A stretch of 64,000 nt of DNA from assembly GCA_038729445.1 (NCBI GenBank), contig JAVYSA010000001.1, forward strand, positions 12,300 to 76,299, read 5' to 3'. Below, one piece after another: positions 1-52,167 of this stretch. The notes below the pieces were generated by a model. The model saw only the letters and a program-made list of their open reading frames with translations, had not been told where the DNA came from and ran no database searches. The position numbers and the translations under genes are program-made. This DNA is from Thermoplasmata archaeon. Lineage in GTDB: Archaea > Thermoplasmatota > Thermoplasmata > Lutacidiplasmatales > UBA184. The first letter of the stretch is position 1, and each line of letters opens with the position of its first letter.

Positions 1-1600
1 TGACGTCGACGCACAGGGCGTAGTTCTTCACCAGCCCGCAGTTCTGCCCCTCGGGGGTCTCGTTGGGGCACAGGCGCCCGAACTGCGTGGGGTGGAGATC
101 GCGGGCCTCGAAGTGGGGCTGCGTCCGGGTCAGGGGGCTCGTGACCCGGCGCAGGTGGCTGATCGCCGACATGTGGCTGGTCCGGTCGAGGACCTGGCTC
201 ACGCCGGAGCGCCCGCCGACCCAGTTGCCGGTGGCGAGCGCGTGGCCGAGGCGCTGCGTCAAGAGGTCCGGCCGGATCGCGCTCGCGATCCGTAGGTCCT
301 TCTTGCGCGCGAACGACCGCTCGAGCTGGTACTTGAGGTCCTTGAGGAGCAGGCCGAAGGCGACCCGGAAGAGGTCCTCCATCAGGTCGCCGGCGAGCTT
401 GAGGCGCTTGTTGGCGTAGTGGTCCTTGTCATCCTCCCCGCGCTGCTTGAGGTGCAGCTCAAGGACGGTCCGGGCCATCCGGCCGAGGTAGAGGGCCTTC
501 TTCAGCCGGTCGGCGCTCGTGTCGCCGAGGTGCGGGAGCAGCGAGCGGTCGAGGATGCCGTCGACCTTCCGCTGGCGGAACTCCTTGGCCTGGCCCGTCG
601 CGAACTTCTTCTCGAGGAAGAGCAGCGCGTCCTGGGTCGTCTGGATCCCCTCGGGAGGGTAGGTCTTCTTGGAGAGGGACTCCTCGATGTTGACGTTGAG
701 CAGGTGCTTCATCGTCTGGACGAACGGCTCGTCCAGCGGCATCAGTTCGCCGAGCACCGCCTGGAAGATCTCCTCGTCGTTCTTCATCCCGAGGGCCTTC
801 ATCAGCACGACCAGCGGGATCTGGCCGCTGGCGCTCGGGACGCTGACCTGAAGGATCCCCTCGCGCTTCTTCTCGACGACGGTGAGGGAGCGGTACCCGC
901 CGCGCTGGCTGAAGACCTTCGCGCTCTCGACCGGTGTGCCGTAGCGCTCGCTGTACTCCGCGAAGATGCGGTTCGGGGCGAGATCCTCGAGGCTGATGAT
1001 GACCCGCTCGGTCCCCCCGATGATGAAGTATCCGCCCGGGTCGAGGGGGTCCTCCCCGTACTCCACGAGCTTGGCCCGGTACTCCTCGTCCGAGATCGGG
1101 AAGCCGCTGTCCCGCTCGATGTTGACCCGGTTGAGGTTGCAGGGCCGGCTCTTGACCATGATCGGGAGATCGCCGATGTGGACGTTCTCGGGGGCCCGCT
1201 CGACCCCGTTCTCCACGACGGTGACGTTGAGGAAGATAGGGGCCTGGTAGGTCAGGTTCCGCAGCCGCGCCTCCATCGGGGTGAGCGTCGGCTTCGACCC
1301 GACCGGCTCCTTGACGAACGGCTGGCCGACGAAGATCGTGGGCTCCGCGGACGGGCTCACGGCCCCGGTGCGGGGGTCCCGCCGGCGCCCGACCCGGACG
1401 TAGATCGAGCTCTTCGTCTTCTGCACGTCGAGGCGGACGAGCCCGCGATCGTTTGTCTCGTCGCTGACGCGGGCCTCGTCGACGATCCGCTGCATCCGCG
1501 AGTTCGGATTGTCGTTGGTCGGCAGGAAGTCGTTGAAGCTCGCCAGATGGTGGTTGACGATCGACCGCTCCCGGAAGAATGCATCGACGATCTCGCGCAT
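1..1600 (-). CDS. rpoB: DNA-directed RNA polymerase subunit B (or B''), N-terminal part; gene continues past window start
   Basis: The frame is absent from the ORF track because it runs off the window edge. Hand translation from ATG at 1600-1598 (minus) gives MREIVDAFFRERSIVNHHLASFNDFLPTNDNPN..., which matches the conserved RpoB N-terminus. It lies immediately downstream of rpoH, as in the canonical archaeal rpoH-rpoB operon. Confidence 0.8.
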   Translation of the reverse strand, partial: MREIVDAFFRERSIVNHHLASFNDFLPTNDNPNSRMQRIVDEARVSDETNDRGLVRLDVQKTKSSIYVRVGRRRDPRTGAVSPSAEPTIFVGQPFVKEPVGSKPTLTPMEARLRNLTYQAPIFLNVTVVENGVERAPENVHIGDLPIMVKSRPCNLNRVNIERDSGFPISDEEYRAKLVEYGEDPLDPGGYFIIGGTERVIISLEDLAPNRIFAEYSERYGTPVESAKVFSQRGGYRSLTVVEKKREGILQVSVPSASGQIPLVVLMKALGMKNDEEIFQAVLGELMPLDEPFVQTMKHLLNVNIEESLSKKTYPPEGIQTTQDALLFLEKKFATGQAKEFRQRKVDGILDRSLLPHLGDTSADRLKKALYLGRMARTVLELHLKQRGEDDKDHYANKRLKLAGDLMEDLFRVAFGLLLKDLKYQLERSFARKKDLRIASAIRPDLLTQRLGHALATGNWVGGRSGVSQVLDRTSHMSAISHLRRVTSPLTRTQPHFEARDLHPTQFGRLCPNETPEGQNCGLVKNYALCVDV

Positions 1601-1603
1601 GCC

Positions 1604-1942
1604 CTACGACCCTCCCACGTTCGCGACGATGACCCGATAGGCAATGGACAGGCCGGCGGTCTCGCTCGGCCGCCGGATCCGGACGAGCCGGCCGACCAGG
1701 TTCTCCCCGGCCTCCCGGGCCCTCGCGTAGCCCGGATCTGTGTTGAGCCCCGGGTCCTGCAGCAGGATCTTCGGCAGGCGCTCCGGGCTCGTGCGGAGCT
1801 CCGCGAGCACGCGGGCCGACTCTTCCTCGCTCAGGATCTCGTGGGGGGGCACCAGAAGGTGGGCCACGAACGGCCGATCGGTGGCCGCGGGGGTCTTGCG
1901 CGAGCGCTTGGCGCTGCGGGCGGTGGGTCGACGGGAGCTCAT
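1604..1942 (-). CDS. rpoH: DNA-directed RNA polymerase subunit H (Rpb5 homolog)
   Basis: 112-aa product containing HLLVPPHEILSEEE...LPKILLQDPG...RPSETAG..YRVIV, the signature of archaeal RpoH. Its stop sits 6 nt before the rpoB ATG. Confidence 0.9.
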   Translation of the reverse strand: MSSRRPTARSAKRSRKTPAATDRPFVAHLLVPPHEILSEEESARVLAELRTSPERLPKILLQDPGLNTDPGYARAREAGENLVGRLVRIRRPSETAGLSIAYRVIVANVGGS

Positions 1943-2165
1943 GGATCACCTGGGAGGGGGATGTGGGCCCGGGGGGAATCCCGGTCCGGCCCTCCGCCCA
2001 GCGGGCGACCGGACGTTCGAACCCCCGACCAACTGGTTAAAAGCCAGCTGCTCTGTCCCGGGCCCCCGCGCGCCGCGGGCGGCCGACCGGGCTGAGCTAC
2101 GGGCCCGTCGCTGCCCCCGGCCGCGCCGACCGGGCCGGTGTATTTCAGGCTAGCCGTCCGGGAGC

Positions 2166-2468
2166 TCACTGCAGGCTCTCCAGCTGCGACATGATCGACC
2201 AGATCGCGGTCCGGCCGTGCGAGGGGAGGTTCGGGTCGTTGGCGAGCTCGTCCAGGACGGACAGCGCCCCGGCGATGCGGACGTCCCGGGCGACCGTCGC
2301 CCGCGAGAGGGCCTCCCGGGCCGCGATCGCGGCCCGGCGGACGTTGCGGGGCACCGAGCCGTCGTCCCCGAGCGCGGTGAGCGAGGCGGTGATCCGCCCG
2401 AGGCCACCGGTGTCGGGATCCGCCCCGGCCGGAGCGGAGGAGCCGCGGGTGAGGGAGGGGGAGCTCAT
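2166..2468 (-). CDS. UPF0147 family protein (small archaeal protein with duplicated helical repeat)
   Basis: 100-aa product with two repeats containing SVPRNVRRAAIAAREAL and NDPNLPSHGRTAIWSIMSQLE, matching the UPF0147 family. Confidence 0.7.
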   Translation of the reverse strand: MSSPSLTRGSSAPAGADPDTGGLGRITASLTALGDDGSVPRNVRRAAIAAREALSRATVARDVRIAGALSVLDELANDPNLPSHGRTAIWSIMSQLESLQ

Positions 2469-2803
2469 GGACGCGGCACCTCCCCGCCCTCCTTGTAGGC
2501 GGTGACGACGAGGAGCGTCTTGGTCTCCCGGATCCCCCGGACCCCCGGCAGGCGGTGCAGGACGAACTCCTTGAGCTCGTCGTAGTGCGGGAAGCGGACC
2601 TTCAGGAAGATGTCGGTGTCCCCGGTGACGAGGTAGACGTCCTCCACCTCGACGAACTTGGCGACCTCACCGGCCACCGCGTCGGCCTCGGAGGTCTCGA
2701 CCTTGAGGGCGATGAGCGCGACGACGTGGTCGTCCCCCCAGACCTTCGTGAAGGCGCTCTCCACGCTCCGGCTCACGGGGGGCTTCGGGTTCGGGCGTTC
2801 CAT
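2465..2803 (-). CDS. Lrp/AsnC-family ligand-binding (RAM) domain protein
   Basis: The core VVALIALKVE...VYLVTGDTDIFLKVRFPHYDELKEFVLHRLPGVRGIRETKTLLV matches stand-alone AsnC-type RAM domain proteins. Its stop overlaps the UPF0147 start in an ATGA overlap. The N-terminal start is uncertain. Confidence 0.65.
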   Translation of the reverse strand: MERPNPKPPVSRSVESAFTKVWGDDHVVALIALKVETSEADAVAGEVAKFVEVEDVYLVTGDTDIFLKVRFPHYDELKEFVLHRLPGVRGIRETKTLLVVTAYKEGGEVPRP

Positions 2804-2891: not shown

Positions 2892-3066
2892 TCAGGTGTC
2901 CGGGGTCGACTCGAACTCCTCTTGGAGGTCGTTGATCACCTGATCGATCACGGCACTGCCCGACGTGCCCCGGTACTCCCGGACCCCGCCGGCCTCGCTC
3001 GAGACGCGGGCGATCGTCTCCGATCCGCCCCGGAGGAATTCGACATTGCAGATGAGCTCCTCCACC
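2892..3066 (-). CDS. Small hypothetical protein (about 57 aa) with acidic C-terminus
   Basis: This is the C-terminal tail of ORF 2892..4349. It reads (V/M)EELICNVEFLRGGSETIARVSSEAGGVREYRGTSGSAVIDQVINDLQEEFESTPDT. The proposed GTG start is at 3066-3064. An unusually AT-rich TATA-like island (CTATTTATGATTATG, about 3106-3120) lies 40-50 nt upstream on the correct side. No family is recognised. Confidence 0.3.
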
Positions 3067-3120: not shown

Positions 3121-3232
3121 CCGAGCCTCCGGTCGCGGGGGGCCGGAAGGGGGTTCGGGGCCGGGTCCGGTGCGCCCCGCCGCGAAGCGGTCGATCGGCC
3201 CGGCCCTGGGTCCCCGTCCTTCGGGATCCCGC

Positions 3233-6200
3233 CTACGGCCGGGGTGCCCCGCAGCGAGAGCAGAAATGGTCGGACTCGGCGAGCGGGGCCCCGCAGTGGA
3301 CGCAGGCGGCAGGAGGCGGCGGGGCCGCGGGAGCCGAGGGCGCGGACGGCGAGGGGGAGGAGGGGGCGAGCCGCTCCCGGCGCTCGGAGCGGCGCCCGAG
3401 GGTGGCCCCTGCGGCCGCGACCGCCCCGAACGCCGCCGCGAGGCCAAGGACGAGAAGGAGCGCCGGAAGACCGCAGGCGCCGAAGAGGCAGAACCGGTCC
3501 AGCAGGGAGCTCACCGAGTTCCCGCTCGCCGCGAAGCCGATGCCGATCGACACGCCGCTCCCGTGGACCGCGAACGATCCGTTCTGCGGGGTCGCGAGAT
3601 ACCCCGGGACCGACCCGACGGTGAACGCGTAGCTTCCATTCGGAAGCGACCAGACGATCGCCCCCGGCGCGCCCGCGGCCTGGGTGGACCCGCCGATCGA
3701 CACCGACCAGGTGCCGGAGGGAAGCCCGCTCTCCGTGAAGACGACCCGGTAGAGCGTCTGGTTCCAGCGCACGAGGACCGGGGGTGGGTTGAGCCCGGCG
3801 ACCACGATCGTGCCCCCGTACCCGTTCGCCCGCCAGCCCGGCACGTTGCCGATCCGGTAGGAATAGCTCCCGTTGCCCAATGCGAAGCCGAGCATGAGTC
3901 CGGTGCTGGTCTGGGTGATGTTTCCCACCGATGCGCTCCACGGGAGCCCCGGAAGTCCTTGGGAGAGCACCGAGGCGAAGTAGGTCCCCCGAGGCATCGG
4001 CACGAAGGGGACCGCCACGGTGGCCGGGCCCGCGCCTCCGACCGTGACGACGCCGGTTCCCGGGCTCGCACGGTAGGCGCTCCCCGTGGTGAACGCTGCC
4101 CAAGGGTAGCTGCCCCAGGCGACCGAGAGCGACAGGGCCGATGCGGTGGTCGTGGCGATCGTGCCACCGAGGTCGACCGACCAGGCGGTTCCGGCCGGAA
4201 GGCCCGTCGCGTTGAACTGGACCGTCTGGTGCGTCTGGGACCGGTTTGCGGGGTTGCCGGCGAATGCGGTCGCATACATGGCGATCCCCTGCGTCCGGCT
4301 CCCGTTCGCGTAGCCGAAGCCCCAGGACGACGGCCCGCTCGGGGTCCAACTGAGGTTCGCCGCGGCCTCGCTCGTCTGGCTCCCGAAGTATCCGAAGGAG
4401 GAGGACAGGGGAGCCGGGACGTAGGAGGGGCTCCCGGTCATCTCAAGGTAGGCCGCGGCGACACCGGTCGTCGCCGGCCCGAAGTGCCCGAGTCCCCCGG
4501 TCGGCCCCCCCAGGAGGCCGAACTGCGGGACGAGGCCCCAGGGGGCCTCCTCCGACGGGTACGGACCGTCGGTGTACTGCTGTCCCTGCCAGTAGTAGGA
4601 ATAGTTCTCTCCCGCGATGATGTACTGTCCCCCGGGGAGGGGCAGCGAGAGCCGCACGGAGTTCACCTGGAAGTCGAGCATCGCCGACGCGCCGTAGCCC
4701 GCGATCGCGCTCGTGATCGTCCATGCGAACGGCGCCTGGCCGAGGCTGCCGTTCACGGGGAAGTTGTAGAGGTAGACGGACTGGTCGGGGTAGAGCCCAT
4801 AGAAGGGGTAGATCACCCAGCCGGTGAAGTTGATCGACCAGCGGGCCGGCGTCCCCGAGAGGAAGATGACGTTCTGGACCCAGTAGAGCGGTGCGCCGAG
4901 GCTGTTCGCGACGAAGAAGTTCTGCTGGACGGAGGCGTTGTAGGTGGCGTCCGGGCCGCTGCTCGTGACCTCGAGAGCGTTGAGCTGAAGCACGTCGCGC
5001 ACGCCCCGGGCGGAGAACGGGGCCCCGGCGTAGGTGTCGTTGAGGACGAACGCGGTGAAGTTGTAGGCGTCCAGCGAACCCCACCCGGTGACGAGGTCGT
5101 ACCCGACCGCGGCCGGGTAGAGGTAGTTCTGGCCCCGGACGACGTCGTTCACGGGGGTCGCGGGGAGCACGGAACGCCATCCGCCGGTGAAGACCGCGCC
5201 GACCGGGGTCGTCCCGGCGGTCGGCTGCTGGAGGAGCTCGTTCGCCCACGCGTAGACAACCGGGTCGACGAACCCGAGCGCGGGCTGCCCGTAGGCCGCC
5301 AGGACGGCGTCGATCTCGGCCAGGAGACCGGCGGTGACAGGGCAGGCGATCGATGTCCCGATCAGCGTGGCGGAGGCGCCCCCGAGCTCGATGATGGTGT
5401 TGTTCGCGACCGCGGAGAGGTCGGGGGTTCCCCGCTGCCCGCCCTGCCCGTATTGGTCGATGTACGTCCGGGCCTCGGTGCCCGCCTGCCAGGAGGGCAT
5501 GGCGTACTGGGTGCTGGTCCCTCCGGAGCTCCCGTAGCCGGGCCCCGGTTCGTACCAGGCGACCTGGCTCGCGATGTGCAGGTAGGACGGCCCGGCCGAC
5601 GTGACCAGCGTGAGGGTCGTGCCCCCGACCCCGATGGTCCCGTAGGTGTCGAACCCGACGGAGGAGGGAAACTCCACCGCGGTCCCGACCCACGCGGGGG
5701 AGTTCGGGTTGTCCCCCGCGTCGCCGGTCGCGGCGAGGACCGTGATCCCGCGGGCCGCCGCCTCCTGCATGTAGCCGCTCCATGCGGCATCGACCCGGTC
5801 GGATCCTCCCCAGGAGTTCGACACCACGCTCACGTTGTCGAGCCCCGGCGTCGAGGTCGGGTTGAGGATGTACGCCATCGCCGCATCGGCGTCGCTGGTG
5901 TAGTCCGAGGGCCCGTAGACGTTGTAGATCGTCGCCCCCGGCGCGGTGCTGCCGACCATCGAGAGGTCGAGGGTGTTCTCCTCGACGGCGTTGGTGACGT
6001 CCCGGCTCGCCGACGGGCCTGGGGGAGGGGCCCCACCCAGCGGAACACCGTAGACCGGCGAGTGGGGCTGTCCTGCGGGCAGGGTCGTGTTGAAGTAGCC
6101 GTAGACGTCGCTCGGATCGAACGGCGCCGTCAGGTCCCCGCTCGGGCACGGCTGGGTGGTGACGGTGCAGCCGGCCCACAGGATCGTCGCGACGACCTCC

Positions 6201-7141
6201 GCGGTCGGCATCGCGATCTGGAGGAGCCCCTGCTCGTCGTAGGCGACCTGCAAGTCCGCCCCGTACAGGTACTGGGTCCCCCCGACCTCGACCGGCGACG
6301 GGTAGCCGTCGACCCTCGCCGGAGCGGAGGGGAGGCCGGCCGGATGCTGCGGGGGGCCGGCGAGCGTGGGAGCCAAGGGCGCCCCGCTCGACAGGCCGAT
6401 CACCTGCTGGACGTCCCTCGCGATCGGGCCCGGGAGCGTCGGGCGGCCCAAGGGGAGGTAGAACGGCCCACCCGAGGCCGACCGGGCGGAGCCGAACCCG
6501 ATCCCGAACGCCGCGCCCAGGGCCCGGGCGGGGCCCTGCAGCAGGATGCCGCTGCGGTCGGCGAAGGTCATCGCCGTGACCCCCGGGAAGGAGGCGAAGT
6601 ACCGCGCGGCGTCCGCATAGGCCGTCAGGTTTCCCGCGAAGGCCGCATCGAACTCCGTCCGGGTCAGGTAGCGGTGGTACTCCGGGCTTGACGGATCGGA
6701 GAGGTTCGCCAGCAGCGACGCCAGCGCGGCCGGATGGGAGAAGGGGAACGACACGAAGACCGAGACCGGGCCGGAGTAGGGCCCGACGATCGCGGGATCG
6801 AGCGGGAGTCCCGCGTCGGCCGGGACCGGCAGCCTCGGAGCCGAGAGGAGGGAGGAGAGAGGCGCCCCGACCTCGGTGAGCGCCACGGAAGCCCCTCCGG
6901 AAGAGGGCAGGGACGGGGAAGCGGCGGCCGTCGGCGCCACCACCGAAAGGGCGCTGACCGCGAGGATCGCCGCGGCGACGATCGGTCCCCAGCGGGGGAT
7001 CCCCGCCGCCCTCCGCCGATGCCCACCGGCGACGCGCTCCCGCTCCACGACCGATCCGCGATCCCTCCGTCGGCCGAGGCGGCGCGCCCAAGATAATCCT
7101 TCCCGACCGGGGGCGCGGCTCCGCCCGGGGCGCGCCGGCAT
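3233..7141 (-). CDS. Secreted sedolisin-like (S53) serine peptidase fused to a large beta-rich extracellular domain, C-terminal TM anchor and cytoplasmic zinc ribbon
   Basis: In-frame ATG at 7141, inside listed ORF 3233..7426. There is a basic N-region with an RRR motif, followed by a hydrophobic signal (IVAAAILAVSALSVVAPTAAA). A pro-kumamolisin-like activation segment is present (PEYHRYLTRTEFDAAF...). Sedolisin motifs include VSNSWGGSD and GTSIACP (the catalytic Ser context). A very long Ser/Thr/Gly/Tyr-rich region with many N-x-S/T sequons follows. The C-terminus carries a TM helix (LPALLLVLGLAAAFGAVAAAG) and then CVHCGAPL...CSRCGAP. Confidence 0.8.
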   Translation of the reverse strand: MPARPGRSRAPGREGLSWARRLGRRRDRGSVVERERVAGGHRRRAAGIPRWGPIVAAAILAVSALSVVAPTAAASPSLPSSGGASVALTEVGAPLSSLLSAPRLPVPADAGLPLDPAIVGPYSGPVSVFVSFPFSHPAALASLLANLSDPSSPEYHRYLTRTEFDAAFAGNLTAYADAARYFASFPGVTAMTFADRSGILLQGPARALGAAFGIGFGSARSASGGPFYLPLGRPTLPGPIARDVQQVIGLSSGAPLAPTLAGPPQHPAGLPSAPARVDGYPSPVEVGGTQYLYGADLQVAYDEQGLLQIAMPTAEVVATILWAGCTVTTQPCPSGDLTAPFDPSDVYGYFNTTLPAGQPHSPVYGVPLGGAPPPGPSASRDVTNAVEENTLDLSMVGSTAPGATIYNVYGPSDYTSDADAAMAYILNPTSTPGLDNVSVVSNSWGGSDRVDAAWSGYMQEAAARGITVLAATGDAGDNPNSPAWVGTAVEFPSSVGFDTYGTIGVGGTTLTLVTSAGPSYLHIASQVAWYEPGPGYGSSGGTSTQYAMPSWQAGTEARTYIDQYGQGGQRGTPDLSAVANNTIIELGGASATLIGTSIACPVTAGLLAEIDAVLAAYGQPALGFVDPVVYAWANELLQQPTAGTTPVGAVFTGGWRSVLPATPVNDVVRGQNYLYPAAVGYDLVTGWGSLDAYNFTAFVLNDTYAGAPFSARGVRDVLQLNALEVTSSGPDATYNASVQQNFFVANSLGAPLYWVQNVIFLSGTPARWSINFTGWVIYPFYGLYPDQSVYLYNFPVNGSLGQAPFAWTITSAIAGYGASAMLDFQVNSVRLSLPLPGGQYIIAGENYSYYWQGQQYTDGPYPSEEAPWGLVPQFGLLGGPTGGLGHFGPATTGVAAAYLEMTGSPSYVPAPLSSSFGYFGSQTSEAAANLSWTPSGPSSWGFGYANGSRTQGIAMYATAFAGNPANRSQTHQTVQFNATGLPAGTAWSVDLGGTIATTTASALSLSVAWGSYPWAAFTTGSAYRASPGTGVVTVGGAGPATVAVPFVPMPRGTYFASVLSQGLPGLPWSASVGNITQTSTGLMLGFALGNGSYSYRIGNVPGWRANGYGGTIVVAGLNPPPVLVRWNQTLYRVVFTESGLPSGTWSVSIGGSTQAAGAPGAIVWSLPNGSYAFTVGSVPGYLATPQNGSFAVHGSGVSIGIGFAASGNSVSSLLDRFCLFGACGLPALLLVLGLAAAFGAVAAAGATLGRRSERRERLAPSSPSPSAPSAPAAPPPPAACVHCGAPLAESDHFCSRCGAPRP

Positions 7142-7145
7142 GCCG

Positions 7146-7153
7146 TTATGTAA
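7146..7153 (+). promoter_or_regulatory. TATA-like box for purS (leaderless)
   Basis: TTATGTAA lies about 25 nt upstream of the purS ATG at 7176, in the 34-nt divergent spacer between the S53 gene and purS. Confidence 0.4.
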
Positions 7154-7175
7154 CGCCGTGCCTCCCCGGGATGGG

Positions 7176-7448
7176 ATGGAGCCCTCGGGACCCCTCCGCG
7201 GCACCACGGTGGAGGTCCGGGTCGAGCTCAAGGCGGAGGTCCTCGACGCCGAGGCGGAGGCGATCCAGCGGTCCCTCGGCCTCCTGGGGATCGAACCGGC
7301 GCCCCGGGTGCGTACGGCCCGCATCTTCTCCCTCGCCTTCCCCGGGATCGGCCCGGCCGAGGCGGAGGCCCGGGCGCGGACGGCCGTCGATCTCCTGCTC
7401 GCCAATCCGGTCGTGCACACCGTCACCCTGACGACGCGGGGCGACTAG
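7176..7448 (+). CDS. purS: Phosphoribosylformylglycinamidine synthase subunit PurS
   Basis: The 90-aa product MEPSGPLRGTTVEVRVELKAEVLDAEAEAIQRSLGLLGIEP...LLANPVVHTVTLT matches PurS. It is immediately followed by purL. Confidence 0.85.
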   Translation: MEPSGPLRGTTVEVRVELKAEVLDAEAEAIQRSLGLLGIEPAPRVRTARIFSLAFPGIGPAEAEARARTAVDLLLANPVVHTVTLTTRGD

Positions 7449-7456
7449 GGCCGGGG

Positions 7457-9790
7457 ATGGTCGCCACGCCCGGTCCCCGCGACCCCCTGCCCGCCGGGGT
7501 GGCGTCGGTGCCGGTGCGCCGGCCGTCCTTGGCCTCCCTTCTCGCGGAGAGCCGACGGCGCCGGTGGGGGTTCGACCGGGAGGAGCTCGGGCGGATCCGC
7601 CGCCACTTCCTCCGGGAGGGACGGGATCCGACCGACGTGGAGATCGCCGGGCTGGCCCAGAGCTGGAGCGAGCACTGCAGCTACAAGTCGAGCCGGCCGT
7701 TCCTCCGCCGCTGGCTCGGGCCCCTCCGGCGCGATCGCCGGGTCCTCGCCGCGGGCGACGCGGGGGTCATGCGCCTCGCCCCGGGCCTCGCCTACGCCCT
7801 GCGGATCGAGTCGCACAACCATCCGTCGGCCGTCGAGCCGTACGGGGGCGCCGCGACCGGAATCGGGGGGATCCTGCGCGACGTCCTGGCGGTCGGCGCC
7901 AAGCCGATCGCGCTCGCGGACCCGCTCTTCTTCGGACCGCTCAACACCCCTGCTTCGGACGTGCCTTCGGGGGTCCGCCGGCCGGCGTACCTCTTCGACG
8001 GGGTCGTCGCCGGGATCCGCGACTACGGCAACCGGGTCGGCGTGCCGACCGTCGCCGGCAGCGTGGGGTTCGATCCGGCCTACCTCGTGAACCCCCTGGT
8101 CAACGTCGGCTGCGTCGGGATCGTCCCACCGCGCCGGATCGTGCCGAACCGCGCCCGGCGCGCGGGGGACCACGTGGTGCTGGTCGGGGGCCGGACCGGC
8201 CGCGACGGGATCGGCGGCGTGGCGTTCGCCTCCCGCGAGCTCACCGAGGGGAGCGAGCGGGAGGAGCGCGGGGCGGTCCAGCTCGGCAACCCGATCCTGA
8301 AGGAGCCGCTGATCCATGCCTGCCTCGAGGCGCGGGACCGCGGTTGGATCCGTGCCATGAAGGACCTCGGCGGGGGGGGTCTTGCGACCGCGCTCGGGGA
8401 GCTCGCCCATGCCGGCGGGCTCGGGCTGCGGATCGACCTCGCCCGCGTCCCGCTGCGCGACACCGGTCTGGCGCCATGGGAGATCTGGATCAGCGAGTCG
8501 CAGGAGCGGATGGCCCTCGAGGTCCGTCCGTCGGACGTCCGAACCCTGATGGCCCTGTTCGAGCGCTATGACGTCCCCGCCTCCGACCTCGGGGCCTTCG
8601 TCCCCGGGGCGAGGGAGACGATCCTCTACGACGGGACCGTGGTGGCGGACCTCGACCTCGGCTTCCGGGTCGACCCGCCCGCGAAGCGCCGCCCGGTGCG
8701 GGCCCCGTCCGCGGCCCGCCACCCCCCACCGGTGACCCCGAGGGCTCCCGATCTGGGCCGGCTCGTCGAGGAGCTGCTGCTGGATCCGACCGCGCGCTCC
8801 CGGGAGGGCGTCATCCGCCAGTACGACCACGAGGTCCAGGGACGCGCCGTGCTCGGGTCCCTCCACGGGAGACCGGTCTCCCCGAGCCACGGCGACGCCG
8901 CGGTGCTGCGGCCGACCCCGACGGGCCCGCACGGGATCGCCATCACGGTCGCCAGCGACCCATGGCGGGGGGCGATCGATCCGTATCAGGGGGCGCTTGC
9001 GGCCGTCGAGGAGGCCGCCCGGAACCTCTACGCCGTCGGCGCCCGCCCCGACGCCTTCTCCGACTGCCTCAACTTCGGCAATCCGGAGGATCCCCGGGTC
9101 CTCGGGGCGTTCGACCGGGCCGTGCGCGGGCTGGCCGAGGGGGCCCGGGCCCTCGGGTTCGCGGTCCCCAGCGGCAACGTGAGCCTCTACAACGGGGGAA
9201 TCGGCCACGCGATCCCGCCGACCCCCGTGCTCCTCGCGACGGGGATCGTGGCCCGGGTGGAGCGGACGATCAGCAGCGACCTCAAGCGGGAGGGAAACCC
9301 GCTCTTCCTCCTGGGCCCGAGCCGGCCGGAGCTGGGCGGCTCCCTCTGGGCCCGGCGCCGGGGCGGCAGGCCACTTCCGGTCCCCCCGGCCGATCCCCGG
9401 GGGCTCCGGCGGAGGGGCGACGCGCTCCTCGGCTGGATCGGAAGGGGATGGGTCCGGGCCGCCCACGACGTCGCGGACGGGGGTCTCGGCGTCGCCCTCG
9501 CCGAGATGGCGTTCGGGGGGGGCCTCGGCTTCGAGGCCGATCTCGCGGCCACCGGCCTGCCAGGCACCACCCTGGCGGCGATCGCCGAGGGAGGGTCGCG
9601 CTGGGTGCTGGAGGTCGACGCGGCGGCGGAGGACCGGGTCGCCCGCCGCGGACGGGCGCTCGGGCTCGTACCCCTGGGCCGGGTCCTCCCGGACCCGGTC
9701 GGACGGCTCCTCTGGCGGCGGGAGGTCTCGGCCTCCCTCGACCTGGCCGCGCTCTACCCCCGGTGGCGGGACGGCCCAGGCTTCGGATGA
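7457..9790 (+). CDS. purL: Phosphoribosylformylglycinamidine synthase II (FGAM synthase large subunit)
   Basis: 777 aa, containing EHCSYKS, RIESHNHPSAVEPYGGAATGIGGILRD and a duplicated AIR-synthase-like fold typical of PurL. Confidence 0.9.
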   Translation: MVATPGPRDPLPAGVASVPVRRPSLASLLAESRRRRWGFDREELGRIRRHFLREGRDPTDVEIAGLAQSWSEHCSYKSSRPFLRRWLGPLRRDRRVLAAGDAGVMRLAPGLAYALRIESHNHPSAVEPYGGAATGIGGILRDVLAVGAKPIALADPLFFGPLNTPASDVPSGVRRPAYLFDGVVAGIRDYGNRVGVPTVAGSVGFDPAYLVNPLVNVGCVGIVPPRRIVPNRARRAGDHVVLVGGRTGRDGIGGVAFASRELTEGSEREERGAVQLGNPILKEPLIHACLEARDRGWIRAMKDLGGGGLATALGELAHAGGLGLRIDLARVPLRDTGLAPWEIWISESQERMALEVRPSDVRTLMALFERYDVPASDLGAFVPGARETILYDGTVVADLDLGFRVDPPAKRRPVRAPSAARHPPPVTPRAPDLGRLVEELLLDPTARSREGVIRQYDHEVQGRAVLGSLHGRPVSPSHGDAAVLRPTPTGPHGIAITVASDPWRGAIDPYQGALAAVEEAARNLYAVGARPDAFSDCLNFGNPEDPRVLGAFDRAVRGLAEGARALGFAVPSGNVSLYNGGIGHAIPPTPVLLATGIVARVERTISSDLKREGNPLFLLGPSRPELGGSLWARRRGGRPLPVPPADPRGLRRRGDALLGWIGRGWVRAAHDVADGGLGVALAEMAFGGGLGFEADLAATGLPGTTLAAIAEGGSRWVLEVDAAAEDRVARRGRALGLVPLGRVLPDPVGRLLWRREVSASLDLAALYPRWRDGPGFG

Positions 9791-10512
9791 CCCCTGGGCC
9801 GACGGGACCGCCGCGGGCGGTCACGACCGCGCTCGTCTCCGGTGGGAAGGACTCCATCTACGCCGCGTACCTGGCCTCGACCCAAGGCTGGCCCGTGCGG
9901 GAGCTGCTCGTGATGGAGCCGCAGGAGACCGACTCCTGGATGTTCCACACCCCCAACCTCGCGCTGGTCGACCGGCAGGCGGAGGCGATGGGCGTGCCGG
10001 TCCGGCGTGTCCCGGTCGGGGCTTCGGGGCCGGAGGCGGAGACCCGGGCGCTGGCCGACGCCCTCCGGGAGGGGGCCCCGGGGCCCGTGAGCGTCGGGGC
10101 GATCGCCTCCTCGTTCCAGTGGCGGCGGGTGATCGCCGCGGCGGATGCCGCCCGACGGAGGGTCTATGCCCCGCTCTGGCGCGTCGATCCGATGCGCGTC
10201 GTCTCCGAGGAGATCGCGGCCGGGCTCGACATCCGCCTCGTCCAGGTCGCCGCGGAGGGGCTCGGGGAGGGGTGGCTCGGGCGCCGGCTCGACCGGGAGG
10301 CGCTTGCCGCGATCGCCGCGCTCGCCGAGCGGGGGCCCGCGGTCCATCCCGCGGGGGAGGGCGGGGAGTTCGAGACCGTGGTGCTCGACGCCCCGTTCTT
10401 CCGCCGCCGCCTCGTGCCGGAGCGGAGCCGGATCGAGCGGAGGGGACCGTGGGCCCGCTGGACGATCGAGCGGGCGCGCACCGAGGCGAAGGGGACCCCT
10501 CGGACCCGATAA
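9787..10512 (+). CDS. PP-loop ATP pyrophosphatase of the MJ0570/Dph6 (diphthine-ammonia ligase-like) family
   Basis: The internal ATG at 9787 overlaps the purL stop in an ATGA overlap. Motifs include ALVSGGKDS (PP-loop), a QWRRV-type segment and EGGEFETVVLDAPFF, all characteristic of MJ0570-like proteins. The upstream part of listed ORF 8962..10512 is low-complexity and was rejected. Confidence 0.75.
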   Translation: MTPGPTGPPRAVTTALVSGGKDSIYAAYLASTQGWPVRELLVMEPQETDSWMFHTPNLALVDRQAEAMGVPVRRVPVGASGPEAETRALADALREGAPGPVSVGAIASSFQWRRVIAAADAARRRVYAPLWRVDPMRVVSEEIAAGLDIRLVQVAAEGLGEGWLGRRLDREALAAIAALAERGPAVHPAGEGGEFETVVLDAPFFRRRLVPERSRIERRGPWARWTIERARTEAKGTPRTR

Positions 10513-10539
10513 TACGGATCGCGGCGTACCGGGCCGGCG

Positions 10540-11289
10540 ATGGCGACCGCCCCTCCCGGATGGGCCACGGCGCTTGCCCTCGGCGATCGCCGGGCCCGGC
10601 CGGACGGTGCGTGGCTCGAGGCGATCACGGGCGTGCCGGCCGGGCGCTGGCTCCCGTTCTTCCGCGAGCTCGACGCCGCGATCGGGCCGGAGGAGGAGAT
10701 CGGCCGCCGGCTCCGCGCGGAGGGGCGGAGGGGCTTCGCGCAGTTCCGGGCGCCGGTCGAGCTCTACGCGCTCGTCCGGTGGCTCCGTCCGGACCACGCG
10801 GTCGAGACCGGGGTGAGCAGCGGGGTCTCGAGCGCCCACATCCTCCGGGGGCTCGCCCGCAACCGCCGCGGGACGCTCCACTCGATCGACCGTCCGACGT
10901 TCGTGCGGGGCACGCGCTGGACCCCGAGGGACTCACCGGTCGCCCTGCCGCCGGGCCGCTCCCCGGGCTGGGCGATTCCGGCACCGCTGCGCCGCCGCTG
11001 GGACCTTCGGATCGGCCCGAGCGCGGCGGTGCTGCCGGCGCTCGTCCGGAGCCTCCCGTCGATCGGCCTCTTCCTGCACGACGACGAGCACACGCCCACG
11101 AACCTCTCCCGGGAGCTCCGGACGATCCGGCCCCTCCTGCGGCCGGGAGCGATCGTCCTCGCCGACAACACCCGCTGGACCGGGACGGCCTTCCCGCGGT
11201 TCGCGCGGGCGATCGGCGCGACCGTCCACCGGCGGCGCGGGAGCGACCTGGTCGGGCTCCGGGTCCCCGGGCCGGGCAGCGGAGGTTAA
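10540..11289 (+). CDS. Class I SAM-dependent methyltransferase (TylF/CmcI-like O-methyltransferase fold)
   Basis: 249 aa, containing VETGVSSGVSSAHIL (SAM motif I-like), HSID and FLHDDEHT. These are consistent with a Rossmann-fold methyltransferase. Substrate is unknown. Confidence 0.6.
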   Translation: MATAPPGWATALALGDRRARPDGAWLEAITGVPAGRWLPFFRELDAAIGPEEEIGRRLRAEGRRGFAQFRAPVELYALVRWLRPDHAVETGVSSGVSSAHILRGLARNRRGTLHSIDRPTFVRGTRWTPRDSPVALPPGRSPGWAIPAPLRRRWDLRIGPSAAVLPALVRSLPSIGLFLHDDEHTPTNLSRELRTIRPLLRPGAIVLADNTRWTGTAFPRFARAIGATVHRRRGSDLVGLRVPGPGSGG

Positions 11290-11313
11290 GTCCCCCCGCC
11301 CTCTGGCCGGACG

Positions 11314-13014
11314 ATGGCGGTCAGTCGTCCCGATCGCCGGGCCGAGGCGCCGGCCCCCGGACGCCCTTCCGTCGCGGAGGCCCGCCGCCGGTGGGAGGAG
11401 CAGACGGTCCGGCCCGCGCTCGCCCGGGCGCCCGAGCGCCGGGAGCGGTTCGAGACCTTGGGCGGTATTCCGATCGACCGGCTCTACGACCCGTCGGTCC
11501 CGGCGACGCGCGATCCGGGCTTTCCCGGGGAGTACCCGTTCACCCGGGGGATCCATCCGACGATGTACGCGGGCCGGCTCTGGTCGATGCGCATGTTCTC
11601 CGGATTCGGCACCCCGGAGGACACCAACCGGCGCTTCCACTACCTGCTCTCCCACGGCGAGACCGGCCTCTCCATCGCGTTCGACGACCCGACGCTCTAC
11701 GGGATCGACGCGGACGATCCGGAGGCGCTCGGGGAGGTCGGCAAGTGCGGGGTGAACGTGAGCTCGCTGGAGGACATGCAGCGGCTGCTTCGCGGCGTCC
11801 CGCTCGACCGCGTGACGACCAGCATGACGATCAACGGCCCCGCGAACATCGTCTGGGGGATGTACATCCTCGCCGCGGAGGCCGCGGGCGTGCCGGCCGA
11901 GCGCCTGGGCGGCACCACGCAGAACGACATCCTCAAGGAGTACACCGCCCAGAAGGAGTTCCTCTACCCGCCGCGCCCGGCGCTCCGGCTCGTCGTCGAC
12001 ACGATCGAGCACGCGACCCGGACGATGCCCAAGTGGAACCCCGTGTCGATCTCGGGCTACCACATCCGCGAGGCCGGCTCGACCGCCGCGCAGGAGCTCG
12101 CCTTCACCCTCGCGGACGGGATGACCTACGTCGAGGAGACGATCCGCCGCGGGATCCCGGTCGACGACTTCGCGCCGCGCCTGAGCTTCTTCTTCAACAG
12201 CCACAACGACTTCTTCGAGGAGATCGCCAAGTTCCGCGCCGCCCGCCGCGTCTGGGCGAAAGTGATGCGGGAGCGGTTCGGCGCCCGGAAGGAACGCTCG
12301 CTCTGGCTGCGCTTCCACACGCAGACGGCGGGTTGCTCCTGCACGGCGCAGCAGCCCGAGCTCAACATCGTCCGGACGACGGTCCAGGCCCTCGCGGGGG
12401 TCCTCGGCGGGACCCAGTCGCTGCACACGAACTCCTACGACGAGGCGATCCAGCTGCCGAGCGAGGACGCCGTCCGCATCGCCCTGCGGACGCAGCAGAT
12501 CCTCGCCCACGAGACGGGGCTCGCGACGGTCGTCGATCCCTTCGGCGGGAGCTACTACGTCGAGTGGCTCACGGACCGCCTCGAGGAGGAGGCGTTCCGC
12601 TACTTCGACCGGATCGACGAGATGGGCGGCGTCGTCGCCGCCATCGAGCGCGGGTTCTTCCAGCGGGAGATCCAGGAGTCGTCGTTCCGCTACCAGCGGG
12701 CCGTCGAGCAGGGGACGGCGACGGTCGTCGGCGTCAATGCCTACACCCTTGACGAGCCGGTGCGGGTCCCCCGCCTGAAGATCTCGGAGCGGGCGCGTCG
12801 GGAGCAGTCCCGCCGGCTCGCCCGCCTCAGGGCCACCCGCGATGCGGCCCGCCACGCCCGCGCGCTCGAGGCGCTGGCCCGCGTCGCGCGGACCGAGCGG
12901 GAGAACACCATGCCCGCCGTGCTCGACGCCCTGCGCGCCCGCGCGACCCTCGGGGAGATCGTGCGGACGTTCCAGGAGGTCTACGGCCGCTACCGCGAGC
13001 GCTCGGCGTACTAG
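11314..13014 (+). CDS. Methylmalonyl-CoA mutase, large (catalytic, N-terminal) subunit
   Basis: 566 aa, containing [55 protein letters not shown] and a conserved catalytic TIM-barrel region. There is no B12-binding C-terminal domain, which matches the split archaeal form. Confidence 0.9.
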
Positions 13015-51026: not shown

Positions 51027-51818
51027 TTAAGGGTATTGTTCCAGTCTCCCGACCGGCCGGCGGCCCCGGCCGGCCTCGCGCGGGATCCGCACGCAGAACG
51101 TCACGCGGTAGACGTCGACGCCGTTCTTGCGGCCGACCAGCGTCGCCGACTCCTGAATCCGGGCCTCGAGCCGCTGCTTGGCGAGGCGGGCGAGCGAGCG
51201 GGCGGCCAGCGTGTCCTGTGCGTAGACGTCCCAGCCCTCCGGCCGCCGCTCGGTCCAGGCAATCGCGCCGCGCCAGTCGCTCCGGGCCTCGGAGAGGAGC
51301 GCGGTCCACTGCGCCTCGAGGCGGGTCCTTAGGGCCTCGGCCTTCTCCCGGGGGCCGTCGGCGGGGCCGCGGAGCTGGAGGACCGCCGTGTAGTAGTGCC
51401 CGCTGCGACGGGAGCATGCCTGGCAGCTCCGCTGCTCGAGCCGCACGGTGAGGGGGAACTCGATCGTCCGCTCGACCCCGCGGAAGCGGACGCGCGCGGT
51501 CGCCCGGAACTCGTGGATCGTCGCGTTCGCCTGCACCTCCCTCCAGTCGACCGAGCGAACGCCGAGCTCCGGATGGAGCTCGACCAGGGGGAGGAGATCC
51601 TCCGGGGTGAGATGCGGAGGCCGGCCCGAGGCCTCCCAGTGGGCGCCGATCCAGCGGGCCCCGCAGGTCGGGCAGAGGACCACCACCGCCCGGCCGGGGG
51701 GGCGGACGAGCTCGGCCCGGTCCATGGCGCAGTCGGCGCAGACCCCCCCCTCGAGCGGCCGGCCGGTCCGCCCGCAGACGACGCAGAACCCCCCCTCCGT
51801 CTCCGGTGCCCCCGTCAC
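51027..51818 (-). CDS. nmd3: NMD3-like ribosomal large-subunit export/biogenesis factor (archaeal homolog)
   Basis: N-terminal CVVCG...CADCA and CPTCG zinc-binding clusters, followed by the conserved HYYTAVLQLRG OB-fold region. Confidence 0.8.
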   Translation of the reverse strand: MTGAPETEGGFCVVCGRTGRPLEGGVCADCAMDRAELVRPPGRAVVVLCPTCGARWIGAHWEASGRPPHLTPEDLLPLVELHPELGVRSVDWREVQANATIHEFRATARVRFRGVERTIEFPLTVRLEQRSCQACSRRSGHYYTAVLQLRGPADGPREKAEALRTRLEAQWTALLSEARSDWRGAIAWTERRPEGWDVYAQDTLAARSLARLAKQRLEARIQESATLVGRKNGVDVYRVTFCVRIPREAGRGRRPVGRLEQYP

Positions 51819-51840
51819 GGCCGTCCTCCCGTCCCCCGCG

Positions 51841-52167
51841 CTAGGAGGGCATCGTGAAGATCTCGGCGTGCGGCACGCCTCCCAGGGAGCCGGTCGCGCC
51901 GCCGTCGAGGATCCCGCCCTCCTGCGCGAGGGCGATCGTGCGGGCGCCGAGGAGGTTCGCGGTGGTGGCCCGGGCGAGCGCCCAGAGGAGCTCCTCCCGC
52001 CCGACCCTTCGCTCGCCGTAGAACTGCGGGCTCACGCGGACGGTCCGGCCCTGGGTGCCGACGGGAAGGTCCTGGCCGAGGAGCTCCTCGTCGCACGCGG
52101 CGACGACGATCTCCGCACGGACCCGGTGGATCCGCATCACGATCCCCCCGCCGCCGCTCGGCTCCAC
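51841..52167 (-). CDS. DUF424 family protein
   Basis: IHRVRAEIVVAACDEELLGQDL..G...RVSPQFYGERRVGREELLWAL matches the DUF424 pattern. Confidence 0.7.
   Translation of the reverse strand: MEPSGGGGIVMRIHRVRAEIVVAACDEELLGQDLPVGTQGRTVRVSPQFYGERRVGREELLWALARATTANLLGARTIALAQEGGILDGGATGSLGGVPHAEIFTMPS

Follow-up and report, generated by a model that had tools for sequence, protein, structure and literature searches.

What kind of protein is encoded by the long minus-strand open reading frame (ORF) that ends at position 3233 of the 64,000-nucleotide stretch of Thermoplasmata archaeon DNA analyzed here (the window; contig JAVYSA010000001.1, positions 12,300 to 76,299), and is it one protein at all? A sequence-only reading of this locus had described a single chain of about 1,300 residues, in which a secreted peptidase of the sedolisin family (MEROPS S53) is joined to a very long beta domain, a transmembrane (TM) anchor, and a cytoplasmic zinc ribbon, and had called this architecture unusual. 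We consider it probable that the product is a protease of the cell envelope that is anchored in the membrane, N-glycosylated, and adapted to acid. The fusion is real and, in its lineage, not unusual, since a layout of S53 domain, middle domain, stalk, and C-terminal TM helix recurs as the standard one across a large Thermoplasmata family.

The protein is a member of family S53, as shown by its prodomain, its catalytic triad, and its oxyanion Asp. The activation segment recognized by the sequence-only reading is matched by the Pfam model Pro-kuma_activ (PF09286; E value of 1.3e-8, 35.6 bits against a cutoff of 23.5) and aligns weakly with the prosegment of pro-kumamolisin (1t1e). Pfam holds no Peptidase_S53 model, and the catalytic domain was assigned instead from structures: in a phmmer search of the PDB, the kumamolisin structures 1gt9 and 1t1e matched residues 363 to 647 with an E value of 7e-16. 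(Residues are numbered on the 1,302-residue translation from the ATG at 7141, and subtracting 31 gives the numbering of the likely 1,271-residue product; all domain and residue coordinates were checked by translation.) The two motifs noticed from the sequence, NSWGGSD and GTSIACP, are present at residues 442 to 448 and 595 to 601, respectively. The alignment on kumamolisin places ATGDAG over AAGDSG at the oxyanion Asp and reveals no loss of the catalytic Ser, Glu, or Asp; indeed, Glu388, Asp392, Trp444, Asp474, and Ser597 are invariant in 120/120 homologs. The segment NDVVRGQN...GYDLVTGWGS (residues 665 to 689), of the form D-x3-G-x-N...G-x-D-x2-TG-x-G, resembles the Ca-site motif of S53 enzymes by eye only, the HMMER alignment ending at residue 647. 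An NCBIfam search of the protein gave no match.

The likeness to kumamolisin and sedolisin (clan SB) thus covers the prodomain, the subtilisin-like domain, the Glu-Asp-Ser triad, the oxyanion Asp, and the Trp, at low identity and with a match at the profile level only, and would extend to the acid adaptation of these extracellular enzymes. Characterized S53 enzymes are soluble and are made as precursors of about 550 to 600 residues, whereas the present protein carries some 600 additional residues that form a jelly roll, three immunoglobulin-like (Ig-like) domains, a TM anchor, and a zinc-ribbon tail.

Such an addition could in principle come from an assembly or frameshift error joining a protease gene to a separate gene for the beta region. 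We found nothing in favor of this explanation. Caution was warranted only by the G+C content of the window (68 to 77%): because it yields long spurious ORFs that overlap real genes in other frames, such as a 1,173-residue plus-strand ORF (3170-6691) within the protease gene, the length of an ORF does not by itself argue for a gene here. The coding frame itself is unbroken from the stop side at 3233 and stays open past 7141 to 7426. Furthermore, the architecture is continuous in more than 100 homologs assembled independently (NCBI, ENA, JGI, and Logan), the middle domain follows the S53 domain at the same position in 120/120 homologs, and the syntenic orthologs belong to the same length class. 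The artifact is therefore excluded for all practical purposes, and the fusion proposed from the sequence stands.

The homologs define a family of considerable size. Counted as clusters at 90% identity, it has more than 238 members. A word-indexed search returned 238 proteins at an E value of 1e-5 or lower; the best 120 of these 238 share 36 to 60% identity with the query over 68 to 96% coverage, and every source-named protein among them comes from a metagenome-assembled genome (MAG) of the Thermoplasmata or Thermoplasmatota. Searched exhaustively with a profile, 1.84 billion representatives yielded 83 clusters at E values below 1e-30, and contigs from one genome per species of the GTDB contained 85 loci, often two or three per genome (80 of the 85 were kept and listed; 67 species-level loci have complete C termini). 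The hosts include a Cuniculiplasma sp., a Cuniculiplasmataceae strain, I-plasma from acid mine drainage, the "AcS" Lutacidiplasmatales MAGs from soil, and other MAGs from peat and soil, in keeping with the acidophile-like secretome suspected from the sequence. Cultured Cuniculiplasma has three S53 genes, at least one of which belongs to the family. These surveys indicate that the family, large, automatically annotated, and uncharacterized, is the dominant form of S53 in the Thermoplasmata. Extracellular S53 peptidases and thermopsins have been reported as prevalent secreted peptidases of Cuniculiplasma and Lutacidiplasmatales, their architecture not being described (PMC5155288, PMC9287336).

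The domain that directly follows the S53 domain in all 120 homologs (E values of 1e-43 to 1e-106) is modeled by AlphaFold2 (AF2) as an all-beta fold with a mean predicted local distance difference test score (pLDDT) of 89.8 and a predicted TM-score (pTM) of 0.89. Its conserved residues are Gln739/Gln740/Asn741, Tyr753-Trp754-x-Gln756-Asn757, Pro872-Gln873, and Thr923-x-Glu925. The Pfam model of Thermopsin (PF05317, cutoff of 25 bits) remains below threshold, with 15.3 bits for the full-length protein (E value of 0.014) and 17.6 bits for the isolated domain (E value of 0.0028), and spans only residues 715 to 764; it matches 6/39 relatives (best E value of 1.3e-5). We aligned 16 true thermopsins into a profile, the Sulfolobus acidocaldarius reference sequence being 100% identical to the database entry P0243. 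The direct hhalign comparison with the middle domain is weak (probability of 12%, E value of 0.0024); a relaxed direct alignment is collinear across 234 columns and brings four motifs into register, namely, NAS-x-QQN with SAT-x-Q-x-N, YW-x-QNV with YWLQDV, PQFGLVGG with DAELVWGG, and (D)QT(G)E-A-x-NL with DTAEAAYNV (middle domain and thermopsin, respectively). The shared patterns can be written (N/S)A(S/T)xQxN, YWxQ(N/D)V, xELV/PQFGLVGG, and (D)xT(G/A)E-A-x-N, and their spacing is similar, with about 170 residues separating the Gln and Glu motifs.

A profile search also uncovered about 60 distant proteins (P0181-P0242) in which the same domain is fused to PKD, FG-GAP, Kelch, TIG, fn3, or dockerin domains. 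Of note, these proteins are diverse and unannotated, share the consensus CFSIQQNF...YWxQN...PEL..VG...TGExSxNLxW, and bridge the S53-fused domain and the thermopsins. A profile of 53 of these intermediates aligns with the S53-fused middle domain with an hhalign probability of 99.9% (E value of 4e-34) and with the true thermopsins with one of 92.6% (E value of 4.7e-7, 255 columns). Since the intermediate group links both sides, profile comparison supports by transitivity that the middle domain is homologous to thermopsin at the superfamily level. It falls outside family A5 proper, given the subthreshold Pfam match and the lack of counterparts to DNVWN, Asp218, and Asp247 of thermopsin: the positions of Asp134/Asn135/Asn138 (within DNVWN), Asp218, and Asp247 in mature numbering are occupied by gaps or nonacidic residues. 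(In prepro numbering, these residues are Asp144/Asn145/Asn148, Asp228, and Asp257, and Glu249, discussed below, is Glu259.) Like thermopsins, the proteins of the family are sequon-rich, low-charge extracellular proteins of archaea; unlike thermopsins, their domain never occurs free-standing and always lies behind an S53 domain. This obligatory fusion of S53 and thermopsin-like domains is previously undescribed, and in the literature we found no description of S53-thermopsin fusions, nor of a thermopsin fold.

The active site of thermopsin was left undefined in the 2013 family study (PMC3842238), and the comparison of the three groups offers concrete candidates. Gln109/Asn111, Gln128-Asp/Asn129, and Thr303/Glu305 of thermopsin (prepro numbering) correspond to Q739/N741, Q756/N757, and T923/E925, whose conservation among the S53-fused domains is 95% or higher. 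The polar residues common to the S53-fused, intermediate, and thermopsin sequences are Gln, Asn, Gln, Asn/Asp, Glu/Gln, Thr, and Glu, and no Asp is conserved outright in this alignment. At the position of thermopsin Glu249 (mature P0243), 39 of the intermediates have Glu and 11 have Gln, and 37/39 of the S53-fused domains have Gln (Gln873), an alternation that recalls the Gln/Glu dyad of the eqolisins. Rawlings in 2013 named these Gln, Asn, and Glu residues as possible alternatives for the active site of thermopsin (PMC3842238). A Foldseek search of the PDB with the AF2 model returned only weak matches to concanavalin-like jelly rolls, i.e., GH16 glucanases and neprosin, itself a glutamic peptidase (probability of 0.96 to 0.97, TM-scores of 0.33 to 0.39), and neither the middle-domain nor the thermopsin profile found a relative of solved structure by sequence. 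Together, the Gln/Glu pattern and the fold hint at a glutamic-peptidase-like site.

One may thus ask whether the middle domain is a second active acid endopeptidase, of glutamic type (Gln873/Glu925 with Gln739/Gln756), such that two proteolytic heads would share one stalk. The link to thermopsin through the intermediates, the residues kept in all three groups (Gln, Asn, Gln, Glu/Gln, and Glu, none of them Asp), the Foldseek match to neprosin, and the agreement with the candidates of Rawlings speak for this proposal. Against it, the direct profile support and the Pfam score are low, the Asp and Asn residues invariant in thermopsin are missing, the Foldseek TM-scores are modest, and thermopsin is sensitive to pepstatin, whereas known glutamic peptidases are not (PMC3842238). 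On balance, we regard a second active head as rather unlikely. If it were real, with an active eqolisin- or neprosin-like Gln/Glu jelly roll, the family would be a natural two-headed S53 and glutamic-type protease, thermopsin, long filed as an aspartic peptidase (A5), would really be a glutamic peptidase, the conserved Gln and Glu of all three groups would be catalytic candidates open to direct test, and the zinc-ribbon tail would couple such a surface enzyme to a cytoplasmic partner.

The remainder of the ectodomain is a stalk. The region behind the protease, read from the sequence as a single beta domain of roughly 800 residues, in fact covers about 525 residues (~690 to 1215) and is a composite of the thermopsin-superfamily jelly roll and three Ig-like repeats. 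These beta-sandwich repeats, of 75 to 80 residues each, have pairwise z-scores of 7 to 11 (Smith-Waterman with shuffling) and pLDDT values of 85 to 96; a BLAST of the protein against itself did not detect them, and no Pfam model matches them. Their signature is F-x-E-x-GLP-x-GT-x-WSV...NGSY-x-F-x-V...GY. The nearest structures in Foldseek are the tandem Ig-like or CnaB-type stalks of Gram-positive bacteria (Bacillus anthracis TIE, pilins, the B region of SdrD, and SpyCEP; E values of 6e-11 to 1e-4). The number of repeats varies from two to five among orthologs. The same repeats occur in other fragments of Thermoplasmata surface proteins, two of which, from mine drainage, are titled "thermopsin precursor, partial"; this search returned mostly short fragments.

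The ectodomain holds all 20 N-x-S/T sequons of the protein, compared with 6.7 ± 2.3 in shuffled sequences, none of 2,000 shuffles reaching 20. The number of more than 20 given from the sequence for the beta region was too high, since 15 sequons lie after residue 685, nine of them in the middle domain, but the enrichment itself holds and is threefold. We infer that the ectodomain is N-glycosylated. Only 7.9% of its residues are charged and its pI is 4.4, whereas PurL, methylmalonyl-CoA mutase (MCM), and a methyltransferase, all cytoplasmic proteins encoded in the same window, contain 24 to 27% charged residues; this, too, suits an acidophile-like secretome. The protein contains no Lys at all, which is not striking because Lys is rare genome-wide here (0 to 1.4% in three of four neighboring proteins and 7.1% in a small one of the AsnC/Lrp type). 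The low charge is more telling than the missing Lys.

Export and anchoring were approached with Kyte-Doolittle profiles. A hydrophobic N-terminal segment (residues 51 to 73) has an equivalent in nearly all homologs, and the signal seen in the sequence is thus present together with its HRRRAAG. Of the suggested Tat/Sec-like signal, the twin-arginine translocation (Tat) alternative was dismissed because the twin-Arg motif is not conserved in the N termini of orthologs (most lack RR, including P0002, P0004, P0006, P0007, and P0008), and HRRRAAGIPRW is off-consensus, lacking ahead of the h-region the hydrophobic positions of the Tat motif (S/T)-R-R-x-F-L-K. Judged from these sequence patterns, the signal is probably of the Sec type. 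At the other end, the single anchor expected from the sequence corresponds to a hydrophobic stretch at residues 1217 to 1249 and to an AF2 helix at residues 1225 to 1255. Nearly all of the 120 homologs have a TM helix near the C terminus with a short basic tail behind it, and such a helix is found in 61/67 complete species-level loci. Based on the N-terminal signal, the single TM helix, and the positive-inside segment RRSERRER, the ectodomain would face the outside and the short tail the cytoplasm. Of note, the outer edge of the TM helix bears a C-x4-C pair, FCLFGACG (residues 1217 to 1224, 3470-3493 on the minus strand), in the query and in P0002, P0003, P0009, and P0011, the other orthologs having FSLFGLSG; this pair may be a membrane-proximal disulfide or else a lipid or metal site.

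Our current working hypothesis for the protein is as follows. A Sec-type signal would export the chain, and transfer would stop at the C-terminal helix and RRSERRER. Outside the cell, the prodomain, by analogy with S53 biochemistry, would act as a folding chaperone and inhibitor and be removed autocatalytically at low pH. The S53 head would then cleave proteins by means of the Ser597-Glu388-Asp392 triad and the oxyanion residue Asp474. The jelly roll permanently fused behind it may be a stabilizing domain that binds substrates or glycans or, as discussed above, be a second acid-peptidase module. The three glycosylated Ig-like domains would form a stalk holding the head some nanometers above the membrane, and the peptides produced at the surface would most likely be taken up by a peptide-scavenging heterotroph, as proposed by analogy with bacterial cell-envelope proteinases. 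The zinc ribbon, on its flexible Pro-rich linker, probably docks to a cytoplasmic partner for localization, clustering, or turnover.

The bacterial proteinases in question, lactocepin PrtP, SpyCEP/ScpC, and C5a peptidase, belong to family S8 and likewise combine a clan SB head and its prodomain with beta domains, an Ig-like stalk, and a C-terminal anchor; Foldseek aligns the stalk of our protein with that of SpyCEP and with Gram-positive pilin and adhesin stalks. In contrast to these enzymes, which have a Ser-His-Asp head, PA/fibronectin insertions, and an LPXTG-sortase anchor, the archaeal protein has an S53 head (Ser-Glu-Asp, predicted to be active in acid), a thermopsin-like inserted domain, a TM helix, and sequons ready for N-glycosylation. 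The protein is best viewed as a proposed archaeal, acid-adapted counterpart of PrtP and SpyCEP, by analogy of layout and not by homology of the whole protein. Thermoplasmata are major scavengers of proteins and peptides in acid soils, peat, mine drainage, and sediments. We suggest that their main form of S53 is a large, cell-tethered, glycosylated enzyme that always carries a thermopsin-related domain; the enzyme being tethered, peptides would be released in association with the cell and not as a public good. Low-charge proteases with such acid stability would also be of biotechnological interest.

Several observations weigh against a cell-envelope protease with a nutritional role. The neighbors of the gene are purS/purL and the RNA polymerase operon, no peptide transporter gene adjoins it, and gene context therefore gives the proposed function no support. 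The zinc ribbon is left unexplained. Moreover, a thermopsin-like domain, three Ig-like domains, and a TM helix also describe Saci1846, an S-layer anchor of Sulfolobus (PMC12207459), so that a structural role is possible. Saci1846 and M164_1049 of the Sulfolobales, whose demonstrated role is to help anchor SlaA and not proteolysis, have a signal peptide, a thermopsin-family domain, three Ig-like domains, and a C-terminal TM helix (PMC12207459), the order found in residues ~700 to 1250 of our protein; they lack the S53 head and the zinc-ribbon tail, and the comparison is one of layout, not of sequence. Could the protein then be mainly a structural surface anchor like SlaB or Saci1846, tethering an S-layer or glycocalyx, with a protease head that is secondary or processes the envelope? 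The copied layout of its C-terminal two thirds, its vertical inheritance in a conserved housekeeping neighborhood, and the recurrence of the stalk repeats in many other Thermoplasmata surface proteins would suit such a scaffold. We find it improbable, given the strict conservation of the S53 catalytic residues and prodomain in 120/120 homologs, which argues that proteolysis is the selected function; in addition, the two or three paralogs per genome and the variable stalk length are more enzyme-like than expected of a stoichiometric scaffold. The cell-envelope protease remains our preferred reading.

The zinc ribbon recognized from the sequence at the extreme C terminus, with its two CxxC knuckles, is a match to PF13240 (Zn_Ribbon_1; 26.8 bits against a cutoff of 25), and its cytoplasmic side follows from the predicted topology. 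Relatives grouped by the unweighted pair group method with arithmetic mean (UPGMA) on identities, a rough tree, place the query in a cluster with P0002-P0011 and P0013 (45 to 60% identity), and the ribbon is present in 12/12 of its sampled members. In the 11 orthologs, C1280, C1283, C1294, C1297, and the final Gly are invariant, whereas the linker varies from ~10 to ~120 residues and cannot be aligned, a signature of selection on the ribbon itself in this cluster. In the family at large, 17/120 homologs carry a ribbon at the end of a Pro-rich spacer that follows the TM helix, and 7/67 complete species-level loci have a ribbon, a frequency of ~10 to 14%; the 86 to 90% without it end in a basic tail of 3 to 40 residues. 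Nonsyntenic paralogs sporadically bear ribbons too, either of the query's subtype or of another (...Y-Y/F-C-x2-C), which suggests that zinc ribbons were repeatedly gained or lost. Like other membrane proteins with PF13240 ribbons, the protein has CxxC-x10-CxxCG beside a TM helix, presumably facing the cytoplasm; it differs from them in that the ribbon, preceded by a Pro-rich spacer, forms the very end of a type I surface protease. In the literature, we found no archaeal surface protein described as ending in a zinc ribbon, and the conserved cytoplasmic ribbon, an addition of one vertically inherited ortholog group, is previously undescribed.

Does this tail, for which the sequence-only reading had suggested signaling or sorting, serve transmembrane signaling, with the state of the ectodomain relayed through the TM helix to a ribbon that binds a cytoplasmic regulator or nucleic acid? 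The four Cys, invariant despite the variable linker, the retention of the tail throughout the closest cluster, and the sporadic ribbons of two subtypes on other paralogs would favor such a role. We nonetheless judge signaling to be highly improbable: the large majority of the family evidently functions without a ribbon, conformational signals would pass poorly through one TM helix and a disordered Pro-rich linker, the literature offered no precedent, and no regulator is adjacent except a generic AsnC-type ligand-binding protein that is part of a larger conserved block.

The start of the gene is probably the GTG at 7048 and not the ATG at 7141, which adds 31 N-terminal residues. The identical NCBI entry, P0001 (1,271 residues, 100% identical, titled [quoted passage not shown]), begins at this GTG. 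The divergent purS starts at 7176, only 35 bp from the ATG, and the GTG leaves a gap of 127 bp with two AT-rich boxes, one toward each gene; in orthologs, the gaps on the purS side measure 167 to 177 bp and the n-regions are short. These are the reasons for preferring the GTG, and the chain of ~1,300 residues deduced from the sequence is thus confirmed as a single protein but is probably somewhat shorter. The features of the protein are collected in the table.

Table. Features of the S53 protease gene and of its product in the window (residues on the 1,302-residue numbering)
Feature	Position	Strand	Residues	Details
Whole gene, likeliest start	3233..7048	minus	1,271 aa + stop	GTG start; from ORF, identical NCBI protein, and intergenic geometry; translation verified
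Signal peptide	6917..7048	minus		Basic n-region HRRR, h-region WGPIVAAAILAVSALSVVA, Ala-rich c-region TAAAS; Kyte-Doolittle window 51-73
Pro-kumamolisin activation domain	6389..6766	minus	126-251	Pfam PF09286
S53 catalytic domain	5042..6274	minus	~290-700	Kumamolisin structure matches
Catalytic Glu	5978-5980	minus	Glu388	Kumamolisin Glu78
Catalytic Asp	5966-5968	minus	Asp392	Kumamolisin Asp82
Conserved Trp		minus	Trp444	Kumamolisin Trp129
Oxyanion Asp	5720-5722	minus	Asp474	Kumamolisin Asp164
Catalytic Ser	5351-5353	minus	Ser597	Kumamolisin Ser278
Thermopsin-superfamily jelly roll	4247..5029	minus	~705-965	~270 aa; 9 sequons
Ig-like repeat 1	3995..4234	minus	970-1049	GLPAGTAWSV...; AF2 beta domain 971-1048, pLDDT 85-93
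Ig-like repeat 2	3758..3982	minus	1054-1128	Repeat comparison, AF2, Foldseek
Ig-like repeat 3	3527..3751	minus	1131-1205	Repeat comparison, AF2, Foldseek
TM anchor	3395..3493	minus		FCLFGACGLPALLLVLGLAAAFGAVAAAGATLG, then basic stop-transfer RRSERRER; Kyte-Doolittle maximum 2.33
Pro/Ser/Ala-rich cytoplasmic linker	3305..3373	minus	23 aa	AF2 pLDDT below 50, disordered
C4 zinc ribbon	3242..3304	minus	1280-1300	CVHCG-x10-CSRCG; AF2 pLDDT 71-88

The genes of the window include rpoH, those of a UPF0147 protein and an AsnC-type ligand-binding protein, purS, purL, that of a Dph6-like protein, and that of MCM. The protease gene stands between the AsnC-type/UPF0147/rpoH block (1604-2803, minus strand) and the purS-purL-Dph6-like-methyltransferase-MCM block (7176-13014, plus strand), an unusually "housekeeping" address for a secreted protease, with an RNA polymerase operon block on one side and purine genes on the other. 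The whole flanking block is syntenic across several Thermoplasmata MAGs, rpoB/rpoA coming after rpoH at the ortholog loci. All loci of the closest cluster that were examined share the order MCM-methyltransferase-Dph6-purL-purS, then divergently S53-57-residue ORF-AsnC-UPF0147-rpoH/B/A, and this shared order indicates that the closest relatives are vertically inherited syntenic orthologs.

The 57-residue ORF is acidic and lies directly downstream of the protease gene (2892-3065, minus strand; GTG start; VEELICNVEFLRGGSETIARVSSEAGGVREYRGTSGSAVIDQVINDLQEEFESTPDT), with an AT-rich box, CATAATCATAAATA, ~40 nucleotides upstream. It is 80 to 90% identical across the syntenic loci L001-L005, L009, L012, L013, L015, and L020 and matches no Pfam family. 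Although no partner of the zinc-ribbon tail is evident, the product of this ORF is a first candidate. The 64-kb window contains no paralog of the protease and no other protein with a TM helix and a zinc ribbon; the sole other ORF with a CxxC...CxxC pattern, at 51030-52031 on the minus strand (FCVVCGRTGRPLEGGVCADC), has no adjacent hydrophobic segment in the context inspected.

Elsewhere in the family, a related MAG carries two S53 genes arranged tail-to-tail, encoding proteins of 1,358 and 844 residues (L006, 8001-14628, and L007). In MFD03323.bin.2.126, the frame of the syntenic ortholog (L020, ~4700-7500) breaks 238 codons into the middle domain and the next ~2.7 kb hold no continuation, which could reflect an insertion or an assembly or frameshift problem. 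The same genome has a nonsyntenic paralog, L040, that ends in a zinc-ribbon tail.

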